Origin: a virus
Taxonomy: Duplodnaviria; Heunggongvirae; Uroviricota; Caudoviricetes
Virus record (IMG/VR): IMGVR_UViG_2630968543_000002
Reading direction: 5' to 3' (one strand)
DNA length: 41,923 nt
Shown here: piece by piece, positions 1 through 6,652 of the stretch
Layout of the letters: each line of letters starts with the position of its first letter
Numbering within the stretch: the stretch's first letter is position 1
Translations under genes and position numbers: made by a program
Notes under the pieces: model-generated
The model's input: the letters and a program-made list of their open reading frames with translations, nothing else
Database searches by the model: none
Told to the model about the DNA's origin: nothing

Positions 1-1251
1 GTGCTTACCGATACAAAATTAAAGAACCTCAAGCCACAGGACAAACTGTACAAAGTTTCCGATCGTGACGGGCTGTATGTAGCTGTGCTTACGTCAGGTA
101 CGGTCTCGTTTCGCTATGACTACCGTATCAACGGTCGCCGCGAAACACTGGTAATCGGGCAGTATGGGCGTGACGGTATCAGCCTGGCAGAAGCGCGAGA
201 AGAACTGATTGCTGCAAAGAAGCTGCTTAAAGCAGGCCAGTCGCCGGCTGCGGCTAAACGTGACGGTATCAAAAAGATTCGTGGTGCCGAGACGTTTGCG
301 GTACATACCGACAGTTATATGAAACACGTCATCCTGGCTGACAGTACCCGCGCAATGAAACAGGCGGTGATCGACCGTGACATACTTCCGGTTCTTGGCA
401 ATAAAATGATGGCTGAAATTACCACATCGATGGTTCGTGATTTGTGTGACCGGATTGTCGAACGCGGTGGCCGGGCAACAGCAGTGCAGGCCAGGGAGAT
501 CATCAGTAGCGTATACCGTCACGCCAATGACCGTGGTCATGGTTTGTTTAATCCTGCGGCTGACATTAAACCTTCGTCTATCGCCATATTTAAACCAAGA
601 GAGCGAACACTGACACCAGAAGAAATTGGCCTGTTCTTCCGCACGCTGGATGCCATTGGTGCTATGGGCACTATGAAAATGGCTTTAAAGCTGGTGCTTA
701 TCACTATGGTTCGTAAAGGCGAATTCACCAACGCAACGTGGGATGAAATAGATTTTAAAAAATGGACATGGACCATTCCTTCAGACCGCATGAAGGGAAG
801 CCGGGCGCACGTTATTTACCTGCCTAAACAGGCTCAGGATATATTGGTCGGATTGCAGATGTGCGCTGGTGGAAGTGAATATCTGGTTCCTGGTCGTTAC
901 AATTTCCGGAAGCCATTATCTAATGCCGCGCTGAACTCTCTGATCGACAGAACGGTGAAAATAATAAATGAAGATGGTGAGCATATTCAGGGCTTCACCG
1001 TACACGATATGCGCCGTACAGCCAGTACATTGTTGCATGAGGCTGGTTATCCTTCAGACTGGATTGAAAAGGCTCTGGCACATGAGCAGAAAGGTGTGCG
1101 CGCCGTATATAACAAAGCGGAATACGCCAGACAGCGCGCCTACATGTTGCAGCAGTGGGCCGATATGATTGATTCCTGGATTGACGGGGAGCATACGGAT
1201 CTGATTCCGTTCTCCCCGTCGAAGTTTGAGAAGTGGATGGCGGGGGAATAA
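1..1251 (+). CDS. int: Tyrosine recombinase / phage integrase, P4-like family; begins with GTG at window position 1, so the true N-terminus may lie outside the window
   Basis: 416-aa ORF; N-terminal LTDTKLKNLKP...DGLYV arm-binding-like region and C-terminal HDMRRTASTLLHEAGY...YNKAEY region typical of P4-type integrases (recognised from memory). Confidence 0.9.
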   Translation: MLTDTKLKNLKPQDKLYKVSDRDGLYVAVLTSGTVSFRYDYRINGRRETLVIGQYGRDGISLAEAREELIAAKKLLKAGQSPAAAKRDGIKKIRGAETFAVHTDSYMKHVILADSTRAMKQAVIDRDILPVLGNKMMAEITTSMVRDLCDRIVERGGRATAVQAREIISSVYRHANDRGHGLFNPAADIKPSSIAIFKPRERTLTPEEIGLFFRTLDAIGAMGTMKMALKLVLITMVRKGEFTNATWDEIDFKKWTWTIPSDRMKGSRAHVIYLPKQAQDILVGLQMCAGGSEYLVPGRYNFRKPLSNAALNSLIDRTVKIINEDGEHIQGFTVHDMRRTASTLLHEAGYPSDWIEKALAHEQKGVRAVYNKAEYARQRAYMLQQWADMIDSWIDGEHTDLIPFSPSKFEKWMAGE

Positions 1252-1254
1252 CGT

Positions 1255-1449
1255 TTAATTATTCTGCTGATTTTCTTCCATCTCGGCTTCTGCTGCCAGT
1301 GATTCAATTTTATCTGTGAATATTGCTGACAGTGTTGCAAATTCAGCATCAGTGACAGCGGGAATTGGAACAAACCTGATCCCGCTGTGTGCAAGCATGT
1401 TTGCAGTTTCAAGGCATTTCCTTAAATCTGCTGGTGATGCCCTGTTCAT
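1255..1449 (-). CDS. Hypothetical small protein (64 aa), translationally coupled to the upstream methyltransferase
   Basis: Internal ATG at 1449 of ORF 1255..1569 forms an ATGA overlap with the methyltransferase stop (1446-1448); acidic C-terminus; convergent with int. Confidence 0.45.
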   Translation of the reverse strand: MNRASPADLRKCLETANMLAHSGIRFVPIPAVTDAEFATLSAIFTDKIESLAAEAEMEENQQNN

Positions 1450-2096
1450 GCTGCACGCTCCCGCCCCTGGTTGTCTGTTGGTGACAGCGGAGCATTGCTG
1501 AATGCATTTGTTAATCCGGCAATATACAACGCGTATCCAGGGTGTAGTTGCACTGCTGGGTCTTCGCACTGATTACCCCAAACATCGAAGCCATGAGACG
1601 TCTGGCGGGCGAACAGTTCAATGCGAGAAACATCGCCTAACAATTGCACAAGTTTTTCACGAACGACATCTGGTTTTCTTGAATGCTCAAGCCGCGGTGC
1701 GGTAAATGACTGAACGATCCCTGCATTAATGCGCGGAGGTAGTTTTCCCTTAACTGCAAACAGGCAATCTTCACTATTGGCGCGAGTCATGTGTCCCATA
1801 CCCATAACCAGTTTATCTGGTTGTCGACTACCACATTTTATCCACGTGAAGCCCTTCATGGTCATCAGACGGAACCCCCAGGCTTCAACAACTTTTAGTG
1901 CTTCGAGTGGTTGTGTTGGCACCCACCACATGGCCAACAGACAGTTTTCATCGGCCAAATCCCACACAGGAAGGCGGCAGATATCCATCACACTCATAAC
2001 CGGATATTTAAAACCGGCACCGCGATTACCATCTGCGGCTTTGTCCCGGTATACCCAGGGTGGATCTGCATAGATTAGTGTGTATTTCTTAGTCAT
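1446..2096 (-). CDS. MT-A70 family N6-adenine DNA methyltransferase (orphan, no restriction partner seen)
   Basis: 216-aa ORF with N-terminal DPPW catalytic motif (YADPPWVY) and overall MT-A70-like layout. Confidence 0.85.
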   Translation of the reverse strand: MTKKYTLIYADPPWVYRDKAADGNRGAGFKYPVMSVMDICRLPVWDLADENCLLAMWWVPTQPLEALKVVEAWGFRLMTMKGFTWIKCGSRQPDKLVMGMGHMTRANSEDCLFAVKGKLPPRINAGIVQSFTAPRLEHSRKPDVVREKLVQLLGDVSRIELFARQTSHGFDVWGNQCEDPAVQLHPGYALYIAGLTNAFSNAPLSPTDNQGRERAA

Positions 2097-2355
2097 AAAC
2101 CACCCCGCAACATCCTATACCGCTATAGTCTCCACGGCGAAGGCCGTTACCTTTTGTGATACATTGGTCCCTGCGAACCGCGATCCTTGCACGCTCAACA
2201 TCACCAGAAGCAACATCCATACACTGAAGCCAAAGGTGAGCGGCAATGCGGAACTGCCCTTTTTTCTCTCTTTCAATCGCGCGTTTTTCGATCTCTATCG
2301 CCGCAGGAGTAACGGCGACAATCTTTGACGGACTGCGCATTGAAACCTTGTTCAT
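2089..2355 (-). CDS. Hypothetical protein (88 aa) upstream of the methyltransferase; start uncertain (2355 or 2340)
   Basis: ORF 2089..2388; its stop overlaps the methyltransferase start by 8 nt (ATGACTAA), suggesting co-translation. Confidence 0.4.
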   Translation of the reverse strand: MNKVSMRSPSKIVAVTPAAIEIEKRAIEREKKGQFRIAAHLWLQCMDVASGDVERARIAVRRDQCITKGNGLRRGDYSGIGCCGVVYD

Positions 2356-2497
2356 GTGATATTTTTCAAGTCGGCTTAACTTTCTCACTTAATCCAACCC
2401 TCTCTGAAAATTAATGCCAGCAGATAAAGCCATGCTGAAACAGAGGCCAGGAATAAGTACCATCCTGACCATTTGCTCCAGTGCCTTAGCAGCACAC

Positions 2498-2746
2498 TCA
2501 TGCCGCGTTGCTCACAGGACGATATACACGTTGCTGAACAGGAGGTTTTTTACCCTGGAACTCTGCCGGGCTTGCTGCCTGACGTTCATCAAGCCAACGC
2601 TCAACTTCGTCACGGTTCCATGCGCAGCGTTTGTCAGTGATATACCAGCGTTTAGGAAATTCACCTGCGCGCTCCATACGGTCGATAGTGCTCCATGACA
2701 GTGGCACCACCGCCAGGAGTTCCTTCTTACCTAATGCACCTTTCAT
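2498..2746 (-). CDS. AlpA-family DNA-binding protein / putative excisionase
   Basis: 82-aa ORF with winged-HTH signature (LSWSTIDRMERAGEFPKRWYI...WNRDEVERWL); GAGG Shine-Dalgarno 6 nt upstream of ATG. Confidence 0.8.
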   Translation of the reverse strand: MKGALGKKELLAVVPLSWSTIDRMERAGEFPKRWYITDKRCAWNRDEVERWLDERQAASPAEFQGKKPPVQQRVYRPVSNAA

Positions 2747-2795
2747 AAATACCTCTCTTGGTTGCAGTGCGGCGCGCGTGGCGCCGCGGTGGTGG

Positions 2796-3818
2796 TTACT
2801 CGAATTCTGTACGCATATCGTTAAGCGTCATCATGAATTTTTGGTGATATTCATCACCGAGCTTTTCAGCCATGGTGTTAATTTCATTTTCAGCGCGCTT
2901 GAACATCGTTTTTGCATCTTCAGCAGATGGATCCAGGCTATTAAGTATCGCGATGATATATTCTCGAGCTTCTTCTCGTTCTGAATCTGAAATTGGCGAT
3001 AGGTGTTGACGCTCATCGTCAACTACGGAATATTCACCAGTGATAACAGCTGCGTTATCTTGGCTAAGTCCAGCTTCAGCGCGCTCATCCATAACAACAG
3101 CCTTCTGCATCTCAATAGAAACAGGAAGATATTTGAACAGTCGGCGAATTACTGTTTTTTTAGCCATCTCATCGAAGTGATCAACCCATGGGCCACTGCT
3201 ACCGGCTTTGCTCAGTGCACGAACTTTCTCAACGTCTGCCCGGCTCATAACTTCAAATTGGACTCCACCATCTTTCAGTCGTGCAACGGCGTAAACGTGC
3301 GTTAATTCTCCGCGGTCACCTGTTTCGCAAGGTAAATGCTCGAGCGTTTCTTCCAGGCCGTATGAGTAGCTGAATTTGTCGTTTGTATGTACGGTACGAG
3401 CCGAGATACTCAGGATCTGCCCAGAGCGGCGGGCAAGGTCAATCATTCCGCGATAGCCGATAATCAGCTGTGCTTCTGTAGATACGGTTTCCCATCTTCC
3501 ATTTACTTTCTGGCGTTTGTCGAACGGTATCAGGTAAGCGTGTCCAAGAGCTCCACCTGGTTCAAGACCCAATTGGGCACATTGCATAATTGCCCCCAGG
3601 AAGCTGGCTTGGTCGCATGATGCAAGTTTTGGAACCTTTCGGATCTCTGTGGTTGCTATGCGCGCCAGACGGTCTGCTGTCATGTGCTTTGGAAGTGCCA
3701 AAGCCATCTGGGCTTTTATTTTTGGGTCTGCCAGAAGTCCGGCCAGAGTTGTTGGTTTCTCATTATGATGTGCAACTTGGTTACCGGTAGCCGCTGCCTT
3801 AAGTGCATTGATAGACAT
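2796..3818 (-). CDS. recT: RecT-family single-strand annealing recombinase
   Basis: 340-aa ORF with strong RecT signature (RIATTEIRKVP...LGLEPG...GHAYLIPF...QLIIGYRGMIDLARRSGQI...THVYAVARLKDGG...FEVM...GPW...EMAKKT.IRRLFKYLPVSIE). Confidence 0.9.
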   Translation of the reverse strand: MSINALKAAATGNQVAHHNEKPTTLAGLLADPKIKAQMALALPKHMTADRLARIATTEIRKVPKLASCDQASFLGAIMQCAQLGLEPGGALGHAYLIPFDKRQKVNGRWETVSTEAQLIIGYRGMIDLARRSGQILSISARTVHTNDKFSYSYGLEETLEHLPCETGDRGELTHVYAVARLKDGGVQFEVMSRADVEKVRALSKAGSSGPWVDHFDEMAKKTVIRRLFKYLPVSIEMQKAVVMDERAEAGLSQDNAAVITGEYSVVDDERQHLSPISDSEREEAREYIIAILNSLDPSAEDAKTMFKRAENEINTMAEKLGDEYHQKFMMTLNDMRTEFE

Positions 3819-3827
3819 TTTTTCTCC

Positions 3828-4727
3828 TTACTTCATTCTGAAGACGCGTTGTGTCGTTGTTGTTTTGAATTTTTCGAATAACTCAGGGTGTACTGACTGG
3901 AATAGCTTCTGGTCGAATCTGTTGCTGATCTGAGATTTCCATGTGCAGAGCGGCTTTCCGTCCAGGGTCAGGACTGAGTGCTCTTGCATGTACATCTTCA
4001 GCTTCTCTTCTGATATAGCTATTTCTTCTTCCAGTGATTTTCTGCGTGACTTCATGTCTCGTAGATCGTTGAATAGTGCGAGTGCCTTTCCGTCAGCCTC
4101 GATACTTGTCCCGGCATCTTTCTCAAACATCAGCGATACATCGCTTACGCTGGTAGCTTCCGGCGGGTTAAGATTTTTCACTCGGTCCCAGAAAGCGATT
4201 TCTTTTTCTAAGATCGCCTGGATAGTTTCTTCATCACGCTCAACCCGATAGATTCGGAAGTCGTCGCCACCGATAAGCACACCGAAAACGCATACCTGTT
4301 TGTTTGTAACCATCAACCCGTGCATGGCCTGGGCCGTGTAATGCACAGGAATTGCATCTGTCTGGATTTCTCCCCATTCTTTGGCTTTGAACGGACTAAC
4401 TGTTTTGATCTCAATGTTCTCGCCTGACGCTGCTTCTGCATCGATCTCAGCTGCAATAAAATCGTAATCACGGTGGATATAGCGGTTTCCGCGATGAACG
4501 ATTTCCATCCCTGTTTCCTCAGAAAGCAGGTCTATTACGTATGGCTCCATACGCTGGCCACGCGTGAAAACTTTCTGCTTGCTTGGGTCTACTGGTTTGA
4601 CACGTGGCTGGACTTTATCCAGATAAACCTCAAGCGGGGTGCGCCATGGGCTAATTCCAAGAATCCCTGCAACATCGCTTCCTCCGATGTATTTTGTTCT
4701 ATCCATGATTCCAGCGTTCCGCATCAT
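3828..4727 (-). CDS. YqaJ-like phage exonuclease (lambda Exo-type PD-(D/E)XK), partner of RecT
   Basis: 299-aa ORF directly upstream of recT; N-terminal GGSDVAGILG motif typical of YqaJ recombination exonucleases; ATGA overlap with the preceding gene. Confidence 0.8.
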   Translation of the reverse strand: MMRNAGIMDRTKYIGGSDVAGILGISPWRTPLEVYLDKVQPRVKPVDPSKQKVFTRGQRMEPYVIDLLSEETGMEIVHRGNRYIHRDYDFIAAEIDAEAASGENIEIKTVSPFKAKEWGEIQTDAIPVHYTAQAMHGLMVTNKQVCVFGVLIGGDDFRIYRVERDEETIQAILEKEIAFWDRVKNLNPPEATSVSDVSLMFEKDAGTSIEADGKALALFNDLRDMKSRRKSLEEEIAISEEKLKMYMQEHSVLTLDGKPLCTWKSQISNRFDQKLFQSVHPELFEKFKTTTTQRVFRMK

Positions 4728-5023
4728 GCCGCGTCCCTCTGCCCATCAAGCTGATCCGCCAGATCCCAGCGGGCGATAATTGCCATTGCATCTCGCCGGT
4801 AGGCATCCATCAGTTCTTCGAACTCAGGGCTGTCTTTAGCAGCCTCCAGTACTTCCTGACGAACGCCTTTGCCTGTTACAACGTCGAAAGTTGAGGACAG
4901 TTGATGAAGTCGGACGCTCTCAATCAGTTCAACTTGTCGGTCATATAGCTGTTCTGACAGGCGGTAGTCCTTGTCGAATGCCAGCATGATTTTTTGAAGA
5001 TTTTTCTGCTGATTAACGTTCAT
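4724..5023 (-). CDS. Hypothetical early protein (99 aa); sits where lambda carries gam (possible anti-RecBCD, positional inference only)
   Basis: ATG at 5023 preceded by GGAGGG Shine-Dalgarno; stop overlaps the exonuclease start. Confidence 0.55.
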   Translation of the reverse strand: MNVNQQKNLQKIMLAFDKDYRLSEQLYDRQVELIESVRLHQLSSTFDVVTGKGVRQEVLEAAKDSPEFEELMDAYRRDAMAIIARWDLADQLDGQRDAA

Positions 5024-5025
5024 TA

Positions 5026-5178
5026 TCAGCCCTCCCATATCTCGTTATCGTTGGCTACATCGCGAGCTTCTTTGCTGACGAAAGCCCACTTGATGCCTTC
5101 CTGTAAGGTGCGGAACTTCCAGCTCATGAATCCGCATGCAGTAACGCAGTACCAACCGTTGATGATTTTCCACTGCAT
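5026..5178 (-). CDS. Small Cys/Trp-rich ORF (50 aa), first gene of the leftward early operon; not in the ORF track (under 60 aa)
   Basis: Hand translation MQWKIINGWYCVTACGFMSWKFRTLQEGIKWAFVSKEARDVANDNEIWEG; GAGG about 9 nt upstream; lies just downstream of the OL operators. Confidence 0.3.
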   Translation of the reverse strand: MQWKIINGWYCVTACGFMSWKFRTLQEGIKWAFVSKEARDVANDNEIWEG

Positions 5179-5184
5179 AACTTG

Positions 5185-5274
5185 TTACCTCGGCTTGTTA
5201 CCGTTGAGGTAATGGTTATGCGTATTTGGTTTGATGTCAATAGATATGAGTTAAAAAAATTACCCATAAGGTAA
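5185..5274. promoter_or_regulatory. Left operator/promoter region (OL-like): two perfect TTACC-N5-GGTAA palindromes (5198..5212, 5260..5274) plus a TTACC half-site at 5185..5189
   Basis: Direct reading; a minus-strand TTGACA -35 hexamer lies between the two sites (plus 5235..5240, as tgtcaa). Confidence 0.65.
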
Positions 5275-5287
5275 TCTTGATGGCAAT

Positions 5288-5309
5288 AAAAAAGCCGCCA
5301 TGAGGCGGC
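5288..5309 (-). terminator. Rho-independent terminator downstream of the repressor gene
   Basis: GCCGCC-ATGA-GGCGGC hairpin (5294..5309) followed on the minus strand by a 6-U tract (plus A-run 5288..5293). Confidence 0.6.
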
Positions 5310-5331
5310 TTACTTGCTGAAAACTATAGTT

Positions 5332-5916
5332 TTATTGTTTATTTTTTTCGTTCTGGTTGATGACAAATTCAATGTAACTTTCGATCTTTGCTTTCTCGGT
5401 TTCGGGTAACAATGCGTAGCGCGAGCGGTCATAGTTGATGGTCGCAGGGTCGTGCGGGTGAATCAGTAATTCATAGCCGTGACGCCCGAATGCGGATGCA
5501 ACATTCTCCAGGGTGGAAATGGAAACGCTGACCTCATTGTTTAACAGGCGGCTGATTGTTACCTGGGCGACGCCGGATGCGCGGTGAAGTTTTCCCTGTG
5601 TTGAAAGGTCGCGGCTTTCGCTCATCCAGCGTTCCAGGTTGTGAGCCGCCAGCTGACCAATGTCGCTTGGGCCGACAGGCTGAAAACCTTCCTGAGAAAG
5701 CGAGCGATCGATATCAAGCCAGTTACGGGGTTTATTGGCGGCAGCTTCAATTTTTCGCGCAACCTGGTCGCCGATAACCTTCTTGCCAAGAGCCCAGCGG
5801 TTTACCAGATTTGCCTGAGTTCCAAGTTTTTCTGCCATCCGCGTCTGAACACCATTGAATTCACGGTCGATCAAGTCGTTGAGATTTTGCCTGCGGACGT
5901 CCTGGATACTTTTCAT
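5332..5916 (-). CDS. Prophage repressor with two tandem HTH domains (CI analogue); no S24 peptidase domain evident
   Basis: 194-aa ORF with two HTH-like segments (QTRMAEKLGTQANLVNRWALGKK and GVAQVTISRLLNNEVSVSISTLENVA); divergent from the Cro-like gene across an operator-rich spacer. Confidence 0.75.
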   Translation of the reverse strand: MKSIQDVRRQNLNDLIDREFNGVQTRMAEKLGTQANLVNRWALGKKVIGDQVARKIEAAANKPRNWLDIDRSLSQEGFQPVGPSDIGQLAAHNLERWMSESRDLSTQGKLHRASGVAQVTISRLLNNEVSVSISTLENVASAFGRHGYELLIHPHDPATINYDRSRYALLPETEKAKIESYIEFVINQNEKNKQ

Positions 5917-5971
5917 TTTCTGGAAAATCGCCTCATATATGAATCAGTAGATGATTCAATTTAAAGCAATA

Positions 5972-6034
5972 TTACCCAACAGGTAAATGCACCTCATAGG
6001 TAACTATCCTTGATTTTTGTTACCTTATGGGTGA
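5972..6034. promoter_or_regulatory. Right operator region (OR-like) between repressor and cro: one perfect site (5972..5986) and two degenerate sites (5989..6003 GCACC-N5-GGTAA; 6020..6034 TTACC-N5-GGTGA)
   Basis: Direct reading; the third site lies between a TTGATT -35 (6011..6016) and a GAATAT -10 (6034..6039) of the putative rightward promoter. Confidence 0.65.
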
Positions 6035-6070
6035 ATATTTATTATCTGAAATAAATATCAGGCAATAGCT

Positions 6071-6301
6071 ATGAGCGATAACGGACATTTCGATTTCAAA
6101 AAGCACTGGCTTGCACTTACTCCGGATGAGCGTGAAGCCTTCGCACAGGAAGCCGGAACGACGAGTCACTATATCCAGACTCACTTAACAGGTAAGCGCA
6201 AAATGCCAGGTAAGGTATTGATGAATGGGCTTTTTAAAGCCTGTAAAACAAGACAATGGCTGCGCTCAAAAGCAGAACTGGCATACTTCTTCTACTCATG
6301 A
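6071..6301 (+). CDS. Cro-like small DNA-binding protein
   Basis: 76-aa ORF divergent from the repressor, followed by a terminator; putative HTH segment EAFAQEAGTTSHYIQTHLTGKRKMP. Confidence 0.65.
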   Translation: MSDNGHFDFKKHWLALTPDEREAFAQEAGTTSHYIQTHLTGKRKMPGKVLMNGLFKACKTRQWLRSKAELAYFFYS

Positions 6302-6323
6302 TATCCATCCACAACCCTCTGTA

Positions 6324-6348
6324 GACCGCCATCCGGCGGTCTTTTCAT
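6324..6348 (+). terminator. Rho-independent terminator after cro (tR1-like)
   Basis: GACCGCC-ATCC-GGCGGTC hairpin followed by TTTTCAT. Confidence 0.6.
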
Positions 6349-6356
6349 ATCTATTC

Positions 6357-6371
6357 GTACCTCAAAGGTAA
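6357..6371. promoter_or_regulatory. Operator-like site GTACC-TCAAA-GGTAA (one mismatch) just downstream of the cro terminator
   Basis: Direct reading. Confidence 0.4.
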
Positions 6372-6451
6372 TAAAAAACCAAATCTGGTTGATCTTTTTT
6401 TTGTGTCAGCACAAAATGACCGTAATCCCAATACTAATAACAGGGCTTACC

Positions 6452-6652
6452 ATGGAAATCATTACACGTATTGATGCCGCAAAGCGCGGACTTAAACGCT
6501 ACTACACCGGAAAACCATGTAAGCACGGACATGACAGTGAACGCTGGGTTTACAACGGACACTGTGTTGAGTGCACTATGGAATCAAACCGTCGCATCAG
6601 GGCAGAGATTAAGCAGATCATGATTAATTCCTCCCCACAACATTCAAGCTGA
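6452..6652 (+). CDS. Hypothetical Cys/His-rich protein (CKHGHD...GHCVEC, possible zinc ribbon); sits where lambda carries cII; start uncertain (ORF opens at 6389)
   Basis: ORF 6389..6652; internal ATG at 6452 gives a 66-aa product. Confidence 0.45.
   Translation: MEIITRIDAAKRGLKRYYTGKPCKHGHDSERWVYNGHCVECTMESNRRIRAEIKQIMINSSPQHSS

Follow-up and report, generated by a model that had tools for sequence, protein, structure and literature searches.

What does an MT-A70 family methyltransferase do at the integrase end of an Escherichia coli prophage, and are the small genes that overlap it on either side its partners? The window analysed here, a 41,923-nucleotide stretch of phage DNA, carries a minus-strand trio of mutually overlapping genes that encode a PerC-family protein, an MT-A70 methyltransferase and a DUF1382 protein. 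An earlier note on the sequence had described the trio as an orphan methyltransferase cassette between int and the excisionase gene, had proposed that the enzyme protects phage DNA from restriction or imprints lysogen DNA, and had suggested that the small ORFs are its specificity or regulatory partners. All elements of that cassette, including both stop/start overlaps, were recovered where it had placed them.

Reading down the minus strand, the AlpA-family excisionase/regulator gene (2498..2746; Pfam PF05930, phrog_66) is followed by a 38-aa membrane ORF (2385..2501), which is homologous to epsilon15 gp32 and phiV10 p35 (phrog_17484, E=5e-27), is annotated in phiV10 and separates the cassette from the excisionase gene. 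The PerC-family gene comes next (Pfam PF06069), spanning either 2089..2388 (99 aa, GTG at 2388) or 2089..2355 (88 aa, ATG at 2355), and is succeeded by the 216-aa beta-class N6-adenine methyltransferase (1446..2096; Pfam PF05063 and PADLOC) and by the 64-aa DUF1382 protein, a lambda Orf63 homologue (1255..1449; Pfam PF07131). A P4-type tyrosine integrase gene (1..1251, plus strand; Pfam Arm-DNA-bind_3, Phage_int_M and Phage_integrase) converges on the cassette. The PerC-like stop and the methyltransferase start share ATGACTAA at 2096..2089, an 8-nt overlap, and the DUF1382 start lies within ATGA at 1449..1446, overlapping the methyltransferase stop. The membrane ORF is in turn joined by 4-nt overlaps to the AlpA gene and to the PerC-like GTG start. 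Such overlaps are not specific to the cassette, because overlapping stops and starts are common across the whole operon, where five of eight junctions overlap by 4 or 8 nt. Moreover, relatives of the methyltransferase gene overlap their upstream neighbour at 30 of 44 loci, whatever gene adjoins; this upstream count is unaffected by the start-choice rule, which favours 4-nt overlaps and biases the downstream counts upward. The overlaps are best read as a sign of the compact, translationally coupled layout of the entire operon and not of a dedicated partnership. Comparison with diverged orthologues gave dN/dS values of 0.07-0.08 for the methyltransferase, 0.10-0.20 for the PerC-like gene and 0.23 for DUF1382, so that purifying selection marks all three as genuine genes and not chance ORFs; the membrane ORF gave 0.18-0.29. 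An Rfam scan of positions 1-6500 matched no family.

The assignment of the central gene to the MT-A70 adenine methyltransferases was borne out. Its product matches PF05063 with E=3e-22 and 79.8 bits (cut-off 23.9), residues 5-176 covering profile positions 1-172 of 172, and PADLOC returned an MTase_II match (E=6e-77) and no other. An intact DPPW motif occupies residues 11-14, encoded by GATCCACCCTGG at 2066..2055, and a conserved IELFAR...WGN region lies C-terminal of it at residues 159-175, giving the permuted motif order of the beta class. The catalytic motifs are intact, with residues invariant across the 14 relatives aligned, and residues 3-171 align with Tetrahymena MTA1-type and METTL3 chains. 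The enzyme is 97% identical to phiV10 p33, 76% to the epsilon15 MT-A70 protein, 81% over residues 1-192 to gp5 of phage phiPA8 (M.EcoPA8orf6770P), 45% to the HK639 enzyme and 42% to an Enterococcus MT-A70 protein whose gene adjoins a PrgI gene. Two further enzymes, M.EcoGII (described as non-specific, from a prophage) and M.EcoGIX (described as plasmid-borne and single-strand-specific), were considered as relatives and set aside, as nothing ties either to this methyltransferase.

The enzyme is also an orphan, as had been claimed. The methyltransferase has only the PerC-like and DUF1382 genes as neighbours, Pfam searches covering the variable regions of the window revealed no restriction-type nuclease, and no restriction enzyme is annotated in the BEN5202 prophage, which is 99% identical. 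An adjoining cognate endonuclease gene, the mark of a Type II restriction-modification system, is therefore not visible. One might then ask whether the gene is the leftover modification half of a larger module, whose lost partner was a DndB-like DGQHR protein or a small PD-(D/E)XK nuclease. In APEC strains and Salmonella phage SPC32H a 355-aa DndB-family gene does lie directly upstream with a 4-nt overlap, and at three other loci an ORF of 168-192 aa with a PD-(D/E)XK (PDDEXK_5) match overlaps the methyltransferase start. However, these nuclease matches fall under the Pfam threshold, and the layout lacking DndB is the commoner one, about 64 of 80 IMG/VR loci showing a direct overlap of the PerC-like and methyltransferase genes. 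Here that 8-nt overlap is clean and leaves no remnant sequence, and elsewhere the methyltransferase gene is found in nin regions, flanked by NinB and RusA. We therefore regard a lost module as very unlikely.

The cassette is an ordinary part of an E. coli prophage of the phiV10/epsilon15 type and had already been annotated. Among 5426 complete E. coli genomes, 560 carry it and have it annotated; the homologous prophage adjoins guaA. In phiV10 (NC_007804; Uetakevirus) the genes p32-p33-p34 have the same content, order and overlaps, with DNA 98.4% identical over 1.6 kb; they are annotated as a DUF1382 protein, a DNA methyltransferase and a PerC-type activator, and show no material difference from the window. 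Epsilon15 likewise carries a PerC-like gene (gp31) and an MT-A70 gene, the latter identified from annotation because its DNA is too diverged for megablast, but a 35-aa ORF lies between the two and a serotype-conversion gene replaces DUF1382. As a discovery the cassette is therefore minor, being annotated in phiV10 and hundreds of E. coli genomes and belonging to a family with tested members.

Its position is best explained if it closes, on the int-proximal side, the early-left operon of a Uetakevirus prophage like phiV10 and epsilon15. A probable early-left promoter region on the minus strand (5197..5275, with TTGACA at 5239..5234), read from the sequence, includes operator-like ATTACC-N5-GGTAAT repeats, a motif shared with the annotated repressor-binding sites of epsilon15. 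Upstream of this promoter lies a predicted terminator of the repressor gene (5311..5292). No terminator-like site was predicted on the minus strand from 5292 to 1255, and no promoter-like site belonging to the cassette was found on that strand between 1255 and 2800. It is likely that the early-left promoter drives the operon which the cassette terminates, and from these motifs we infer the timing of its expression. The counterpart of the AlpA gene in epsilon15, gp33, is annotated as an excisionase.

Seven diverged PerC-like homologues led to 16 places in epsilon15-like prophages, and in 16 of 16 a DNA methyltransferase occupies the slot between the PerC-like gene and int, of the MT-A70 family in nine, Dam (PF05869) in five and N6_N4 (PF01555) in two. 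That classical DNA methyltransferase families fill the slot argues for a DNA substrate. Moreover, a slot that is always filled by a methyltransferase, adenine or cytosine, makes self-methylation look like a fixed requirement of the epsilon15-like lineage. The genes beside the MT-A70 enzyme are interchangeable: among its relatives, 41 immediate upstream neighbours form 24 clusters and the 43 downstream ones form 27. On the upstream side PerC-domain proteins are seen most often (about 9-11 of the 41 loci), and among 80 near-identical loci with the same methyltransferase, DUF1382 is swapped for a NinI phosphatase in 17.

Which sequence the enzyme methylates we infer from its relatives, and GATC is the most likely target, since the tested prokaryotic MT-A70 members methylate GATC in DNA. 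In a dam- host carrying p32 of Serratia phage BZS1, DNA turns MboI-resistant and DpnI-sensitive, the Tn1549 enzyme M.EfaBMDam is GATC-specific, and the HK639 enzyme is 75% identical to BZS1 p32 (PMC7556043). GATC specificity is also listed for M.EcoGV (PMC6602927), which PMC10810198 describes as highly similar to the phiPA8 enzyme. BZS1 p32, M.EfaBMDam and M.EcoGV share with the enzyme of the window its Pfam family and beta-class motif order. They too are orphans on phages or mobile elements, often directly downstream of int (PMC7556043, PMC6602927). The HK639/BZS1 and Enterococcus branches are only ~42-45% identical to it, however, and GATC specificity is here a putative property extrapolated from relatives 42-81% identical, distances that can alter specificity. 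The prophage has 150 GATC sites at an observed/expected ratio of 0.72, a mild under-representation that does not discriminate between the hypotheses.

Taken together, we consider it probable that the cassette encodes a stand-alone, Dam-like MT-A70 methyltransferase of the early-left operon that methylates replicating phage DNA. The operon would be repressed in the lysogen, and upon infection or induction the gene would be transcribed from the repressor-controlled promoter alongside the exonuclease, RecT and excisionase genes. The enzyme could then methylate the fast-replicating phage DNA, outpacing host Dam, so that progeny DNA would exit fully methylated. Full methylation may guard against enzymes that cleave GATC-containing sites lacking methylation, or may serve further phage functions for which Dam methylation is needed. 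Of the two roles proposed earlier, the better supported is thus that of protecting or methylating phage DNA, through the GATC-specific relatives and the DNA methyltransferase families that share the slot. Imprinting of lysogen DNA gains little, as the operon sits behind epsilon15-type repressor operators and the probable GATC target is already methylated by host Dam.

A role in the lysogen can be stated more broadly: as an epigenetic regulator or 'molecular vaccine', the enzyme would methylate a non-GATC motif in both host and prophage DNA; the proposed outcomes are changed gene expression or a block on incoming restriction-modification systems. An orphan methyltransferase in so widespread a prophage would fit, as would the report that the Stx-phage homologue is transcribed in lysogens near stationary phase and alters induction frequency (PMC10810198); the reported transcription also weighs against expression being confined to infection and induction. 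Against a lysogen role, operator-like repeats precede the operon that has the gene at its end, the gene lacks a promoter-like site of its own on the minus strand between 1255 and 2800, the GATC specificity of the tested relatives would make it redundant with host Dam, and published methylomes of E. coli with related prophage methyltransferases contain no extra motif assignable to them. We hold such a role to be quite unlikely. The earlier note had taken the lack of a new m6A motif in the lysogen as grounds for dismissing the cassette's activity; this is flawed because host Dam masks GATC-specific activity. Should the enzyme prove GATC-specific, comparing the methylomes of dam+ lysogens would never reveal it, and a dam- background would be required.

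The nearest studied relative points elsewhere. M.EcoPA8orf6770P of phiPA8 (Gong, Chakraborty & Koudelka, NAR 2024, PMC10810198) resembles the methyltransferase of the window in its DPPW motif, its int-proximal position, the overlap with a small upstream ORF and the DUF1382 gene that follows. It co-purifies 1:1 with PNB-2, the product of its overlapping upstream gene, and together with PNB-2 is reported to prefer 16S rRNA in 30S subunits; its DNA methyltransferase activity in vitro was near zero, which counts against a Dam-like reading (PMC10810198). By analogy, the enzyme studied here could be a catalytic subunit that an adjoining small protein, PerC-like or DUF1382, targets to 16S rRNA/30S, modulating spontaneous prophage induction. 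Besides the 81% identity over residues 1-192 and the layout common to both phages, a small ORF overlapping the methyltransferase start upstream and DUF1382 downstream, the enzyme has a long C-terminal tail, as does the STEC form linked to PNB-2 binding (PMC10810198). In addition, PerC-domain proteins are its commonest upstream neighbours, and the modelled low-confidence tail of the PerC-like protein contains an invariant Y-x-G such as would be expected of a binding motif. However, the upstream ORF of phiPA8 encodes the winged-helix PNB-2 and that of the window a PerC-family protein; BLASTP aligned the latter with neither PNB-2 nor PA28 gp06, even at E<=100, so that no PNB-2 homologue is recognisable directly upstream. 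Similarity between the two enzymes stops at about residue 192, their last ~25 residues being unrelated in sequence, and the STEC-type C-terminal ~27 residues proposed for PNB-2 binding are absent. The PerC-like gene is found equally upstream of Dam- and N6_N4-family genes, other genes often lie between it and the MT-A70 gene, and DUF1382 is exchangeable with NinI and is also present in lambda. The phage types differ as well, phiPA8 being a lambdoid Stx phage and the window an epsilon15-like podovirus, and the rRNA activity reported for phiPA8 comes from a SAM-consumption assay without a mapped modified base (PMC10810198). Classical DNA methyltransferase families also replace the gene in the same slot. 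We therefore judge an rRNA-directed holoenzyme to be unlikely. Published work thus disagrees, with the closest studied relative described as a 16S rRNA methyltransferase and other family members as GATC DNA methyltransferases; the phage of the window, having the same catalytic core with another neighbour and another tail, would offer a clean comparison for the intrinsic activity of the enzyme.

The same evidence bears on the flanking genes. The suggestion that they are specificity or regulatory partners went mostly unsupported, since the PerC-like gene is kept alongside Dam and N6_N4 families, DUF1382 is swappable and neither small ORF resembles PNB-2, the partner of the 81%-identical Stx-phage enzyme. 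The best reading is that the two are mutually independent accessory genes within a shared operon. For the PerC-like gene, GTG 2388 is more likely than ATG 2355 to be the start, judging from the GTGA overlap with the membrane ORF stop and a GAGAGGG Shine-Dalgarno-like motif. It belongs to the backbone of epsilon15-like phages, as epsilon15 gp31 and phiV10 p34 do. Its product matches PF06069 with 30.3 bits (cut-off 22.6) over profile positions 5-50 of 90 only and phrog_868 with E=1e-54, and its score against the NCBIfam profile for ANR, the AraC negative regulator (NF033650), was 23.9 bits, below the cut-off of 32. The enteric regulators PerC and Pch activate transcription of ler. The phage protein passes the Pfam PerC threshold across the conserved helical core of the PerC/Pch/ANR regulators, but differs from them in its partial profile match, its sub-cut-off ANR score, the small size of its subfamily (172 clusters in 5.8 billion proteins), its confinement to prophages and an invariant C-terminal Y-x-G (Y88/G90) of its own. 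An AF2 model predicts a three-helix bundle without a helix-turn-helix, plus the low-confidence C-terminal tail that holds this motif, and a fold search with the model gave no PDB match at E<0.1, only generic three-helix (MIT/TPR-like) matches at E>=0.5. A natural PerC-methyltransferase fusion exists (P0004).

The DUF1382 ORF matches PF07131 over positions 1-60 of 60 (E=1.4e-30, 105.7 bits, cut-off 27) and lambda Orf63 (PDB 8DSB) over residues 2-62 (E=6e-13), a full-length match. Orf63, encoded in the lambda exo-xis region, is a dimeric early protein with a pro-lytic role, and the intertwined dimer and pro-lytic effect on induction are known for lambda and Phi24B Orf63 only (PMC10869804, PMC5575149). 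DUF1382 is therefore best described by its homology as a putative Orf63-like developmental factor, an independent accessory gene sharing the operon. By analogy with PNB-2, the PerC-like protein, through its Y-x-G tail, or a DUF1382 dimer, through a helix-binding cleft, might, in epsilon15-like phages, physically partner whichever adenine methyltransferase fills the slot and alter its target or timing; we think this decidedly improbable, though it would provide the first molecular partner for lambda Orf63 and the prophage PerC family. In lambda the Orf63 gene has no adjoining methyltransferase, whereas DUF1382 abuts an MT-A70 gene here and in Stx phages, whose DUF1382 product, likewise encoded downstream of the MT-A70 gene, is 49% identical to that of the window. 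In some Klebsiella and Citrobacter prophages the DUF1382 gene is instead found upstream of the MT-A70 gene.

The gene junctions were taken straight off the sequence. The window opens with a P4-type integrase gene (1..1251, plus strand), on which a chain of small minus-strand genes converges: an AlpA-type excisionase/regulator (2498..2746), a 38-aa membrane ORF (2385..2501), a PerC-family ORF (2089..2355 from an ATG, or to 2388 from a GTG), a 216-aa MT-A70 methyltransferase (1446..2096) with DPPW at residues 11-14, and a 64-aa DUF1382 ORF (1255..1449). The methyltransferase is joined to the DUF1382 ORF by ATGA at 1449..1446 and to the PerC-like ORF by the ATGACTAA overlap at 2096..2089. The longer PerC-like frame is in turn tied to the 38-aa ORF by GTGA at 2388..2385, and the latter to AlpA by ATGA at 2501..2498. 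All three cassette genes are under purifying selection (dN/dS 0.07-0.23 against diverged orthologues). Thus the cassette reported in the earlier note, with its genes, overlaps and DPPW motif, is real.

It is also known, annotated and common. A 1.6-kb stretch covering it matches phiV10 p32-p34 at 98.4% identity, and these are already named DUF1382 protein, DNA methyltransferase and PerC-type activator. Matches occur in 560 of 5426 complete E. coli genomes, and their PGAP annotations use the same three names. The window as a whole represents an epsilon15/phiV10-like (Uetakevirus) prophage, with a close relative in strain BEN5202 that adjoins guaA. Moreover, an MT-A70 gene of 77% identity is found on a set of ~48-kb (46-49 kb) plasmids of E. 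coli, E. fergusonii and E. albertii (database matches H120-H134), possibly phage-plasmids, and Klebsiella plasmids carry a copy of 78-80% identity beside a DUF1317 gene.

The Pfam MT-A70 match spans the whole domain, the PADLOC type II methyltransferase model matches at E=6e-77, and the nearest solved relatives by sequence are the ciliate MTA1-type and human METTL3 catalytic domains. The best PHROG profile, phrog_359, has 329 positions of which the window protein spans only 118-321, so some family members must have an N-terminal extension of ~117 residues. The description of the enzyme as an orphan holds for the window: the annotation of the BEN5202 prophage lists no restriction enzyme, Pfam scans of the parts that differ from it turned up replication, Ea22, Bro and similar genes and no restriction enzyme, and the methyltransferase was the only PADLOC match.

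Directly upstream of the methyltransferase, some relatives have either a DndB-like gene or one that may encode a PD-(D/E)XK protein. The former, a 355-aa DndB-family (DGQHR) gene (Pfam DndB E=3e-46, PADLOC DndB E=2e-37), separates the PerC-like gene from the same MT-A70 gene, whose start it overlaps by 4 nt, in some otherwise near-identical prophages (comparison loci L002 3391-4458, E. coli APEC strains; L005 1937-3004, Salmonella phage SPC32H; and L016). No other dnd genes were visible in the annotated flanks, and the pair may be a functional module. The latter, a 168-192-aa ORF overlapping the MT-A70 start (L130 2945-3451, and upstream neighbours in L010 and L015; Scandinavium sp. and Klebsiella pneumoniae ATCC 13883), has a PDDEXK_5 match under the Pfam cut-off (E about 3e-5). 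If it encodes a small cognate nuclease, as it could, those relatives would not be orphans.

The downstream ORF is a full-length DUF1382 protein matching PDB 8DSB (E=6e-13), the NMR structure of lambda Orf63 (PMC10869804), an early pro-lytic dimer from the exo-xis region (PMC10869804, PMC5575149). The upstream ORF is over the Pfam PerC threshold and under the NCBIfam ANR cut-off. Its AlphaFold model (26 homologues in the alignment) has a three-helix core with pLDDT about 85, and the model gave no significant match among solved structures. The C-terminal tail (residues 86-99, window 2089-2130), outside the stretch matching Pfam PerC, is modelled at pLDDT below 50 and contains invariant Y88 and G90 (motif D-Y-S-G-I); it looks like a short binding motif for a partner.

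There is real precedent for a coupled small ORF as partner. In the Stx2a phage phiPA8, the int-proximal MT-A70 gene gp5 (M.EcoPA8orf6770P) increases spontaneous induction, an effect that depends on DPPW (Gong, Chakraborty and Koudelka, NAR 2024, PMC10810198). By itself the enzyme is almost inactive on both DNA and RNA, and PNB-2, from the overlapping upstream gene, co-purifies with it 1:1 (PMC10810198). However, comparison with the phiPA8 sequence (KP682374) reveals that the window's small ORFs are not the proteins of this precedent. Neither PNB-2 nor the upstream ORF of phage PA28, which is a different one, shows similarity to the PerC-like ORF. Both phage types have a DUF1382 gene after the methyltransferase (49% identical), and the enzymes are 81% identical over residues 1-192, with unrelated tails beyond. 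The annotated DUF1382 gene overlaps the methyltransferase 3′ end by 41 nt in Stx phages (phiPA8, L006 2056-2268 and 2228-2854) and by 4 nt in the window, therefore the differing tails may partly reflect where the downstream gene joined.

We then compared neighbours across 37 loci encoding methyltransferase relatives, one genome per species, plus phage loci. Of the immediate neighbours, the 41 upstream ones fell into 24 sequence clusters and the 43 downstream ones into 27. PerC-domain proteins (about 9-11 loci), NinB, DndB-like proteins and others occur upstream, and DUF1382 (E. coli phages only) and RusA are among those downstream. Overlap at the upstream junction is the rule whatever the neighbour (30/44 loci). 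Among the best 80 IMG/VR loci, DUF1382 follows a near-identical methyltransferase in 45, NinI phosphatase does so in 17, and DUF1382 lies upstream instead in 3. In the reverse direction, seven PerC-like homologues (62-84% identity) were traced to 16 places (L126-L141), all with the epsilon15-like backbone RecT - AlpA - (38-aa ORF) - PerC-like - cargo - int. Every cargo includes a DNA methyltransferase, of the MT-A70 (9/16), Dam PF05869 (5/16, one fused to a C5 methylase, 664 aa) or N6_N4 PF01555 (2/16) family, and DUF1317, DndB, DUF4406, NinX or DUF1382 genes often intervene between it and the PerC-like gene. Therefore, PerC-like is a backbone gene indifferent to methyltransferase family and DUF1382 an exchangeable accessory. 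Judged by these gene orders, neither acts like a dedicated subunit, and their proposed role as specificity or regulatory partners is largely wrong. In rare database proteins, P0004 (297 aa) and P0002 (263 aa), the PerC-like and methyltransferase frames are joined into one. P0004 is accounted for by a missing T in the GTTT run that immediately precedes the ATG of the ATGACTAA overlap; the fusions, few and all from read-archive assemblies, are possibly sequencing errors.

Three lines of support suggest that the target is DNA, probably GATC. The slot is taken in sister prophages by classical DNA methyltransferase families, a case of functional replacement among unrelated enzymes, and self-methylation looks like a constant requirement of the epsilon15-like lineage. 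Prokaryotic MT-A70 enzymes that have been tested are GATC-specific DNA methyltransferases, for example p32 of Serratia phage BZS1 and M.EfaBMDam of Tn1549 (PMC7556043); the HK639 enzyme, a BZS1 relative, and an Enterococcus MT-A70 beside a PrgI gene are 45% and 42% identical to the window enzyme, respectively. Lastly, M.EcoGV, listed as GATC-specific by PacBio (PMC6602927), is described as highly similar to the phiPA8 enzyme (PMC10810198). The main rival is an rRNA methyltransferase holoenzyme of the phiPA8 type, as a SAM-consumption assay without base mapping showed M.EcoPA8orf6770P with PNB-2 to favour 16S rRNA in 30S subunits (PMC10810198); we regard it as improbable. On balance, a Dam-like enzyme methylating replicating phage DNA is the likeliest mechanism, in which we place moderate confidence. 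The remaining interest of a cassette already known and annotated is low, and lies in the DNA-versus-rRNA question for this enzyme clade and in the partners of Orf63 and prophage PerC-like proteins.

The upstream region bears on when the enzyme would be made. Downstream of the predicted repressor-gene terminator (5311..5292), within 5197-5311, we read a probable TTGACA-type promoter with ATTACC-N5-GGTAAT operator-like inverted repeats on both sides, the same form as epsilon15 sites annotated as repressor-binding. Between this point and the cassette end, the minus strand has no predicted terminator-like site. The cassette would thus be the tail of a repressor-controlled early-left operon, presumably turned on at infection or induction. 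Protection of phage DNA, one role offered in the earlier note, is plausible, whereas imprinting of the lysogen fits such an operon poorly; a search for a new m6A motif in the lysogen, as framed there, would be confounded by host Dam.

A GC-rich hairpin, gcggcgcgcgtggcgccgc (2765-2790), without a following T-run, separates the RecT stop from the AlpA start, and the equivalent epsilon15 position is annotated 'stem-loop; transcriptional pausing'. The recombination module upstream of the cassette is mosaic (2796-4727 against L007, L001 and L002): RecT is paired with a YqaJ exonuclease in the window and in epsilon15, another RecT with a DUF3799/PD-(D/E)XK protein in BEN5202 and many relatives, and some APEC strains have Bet. 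The homology break coincides with this AlpA-RecT intergenic hairpin.
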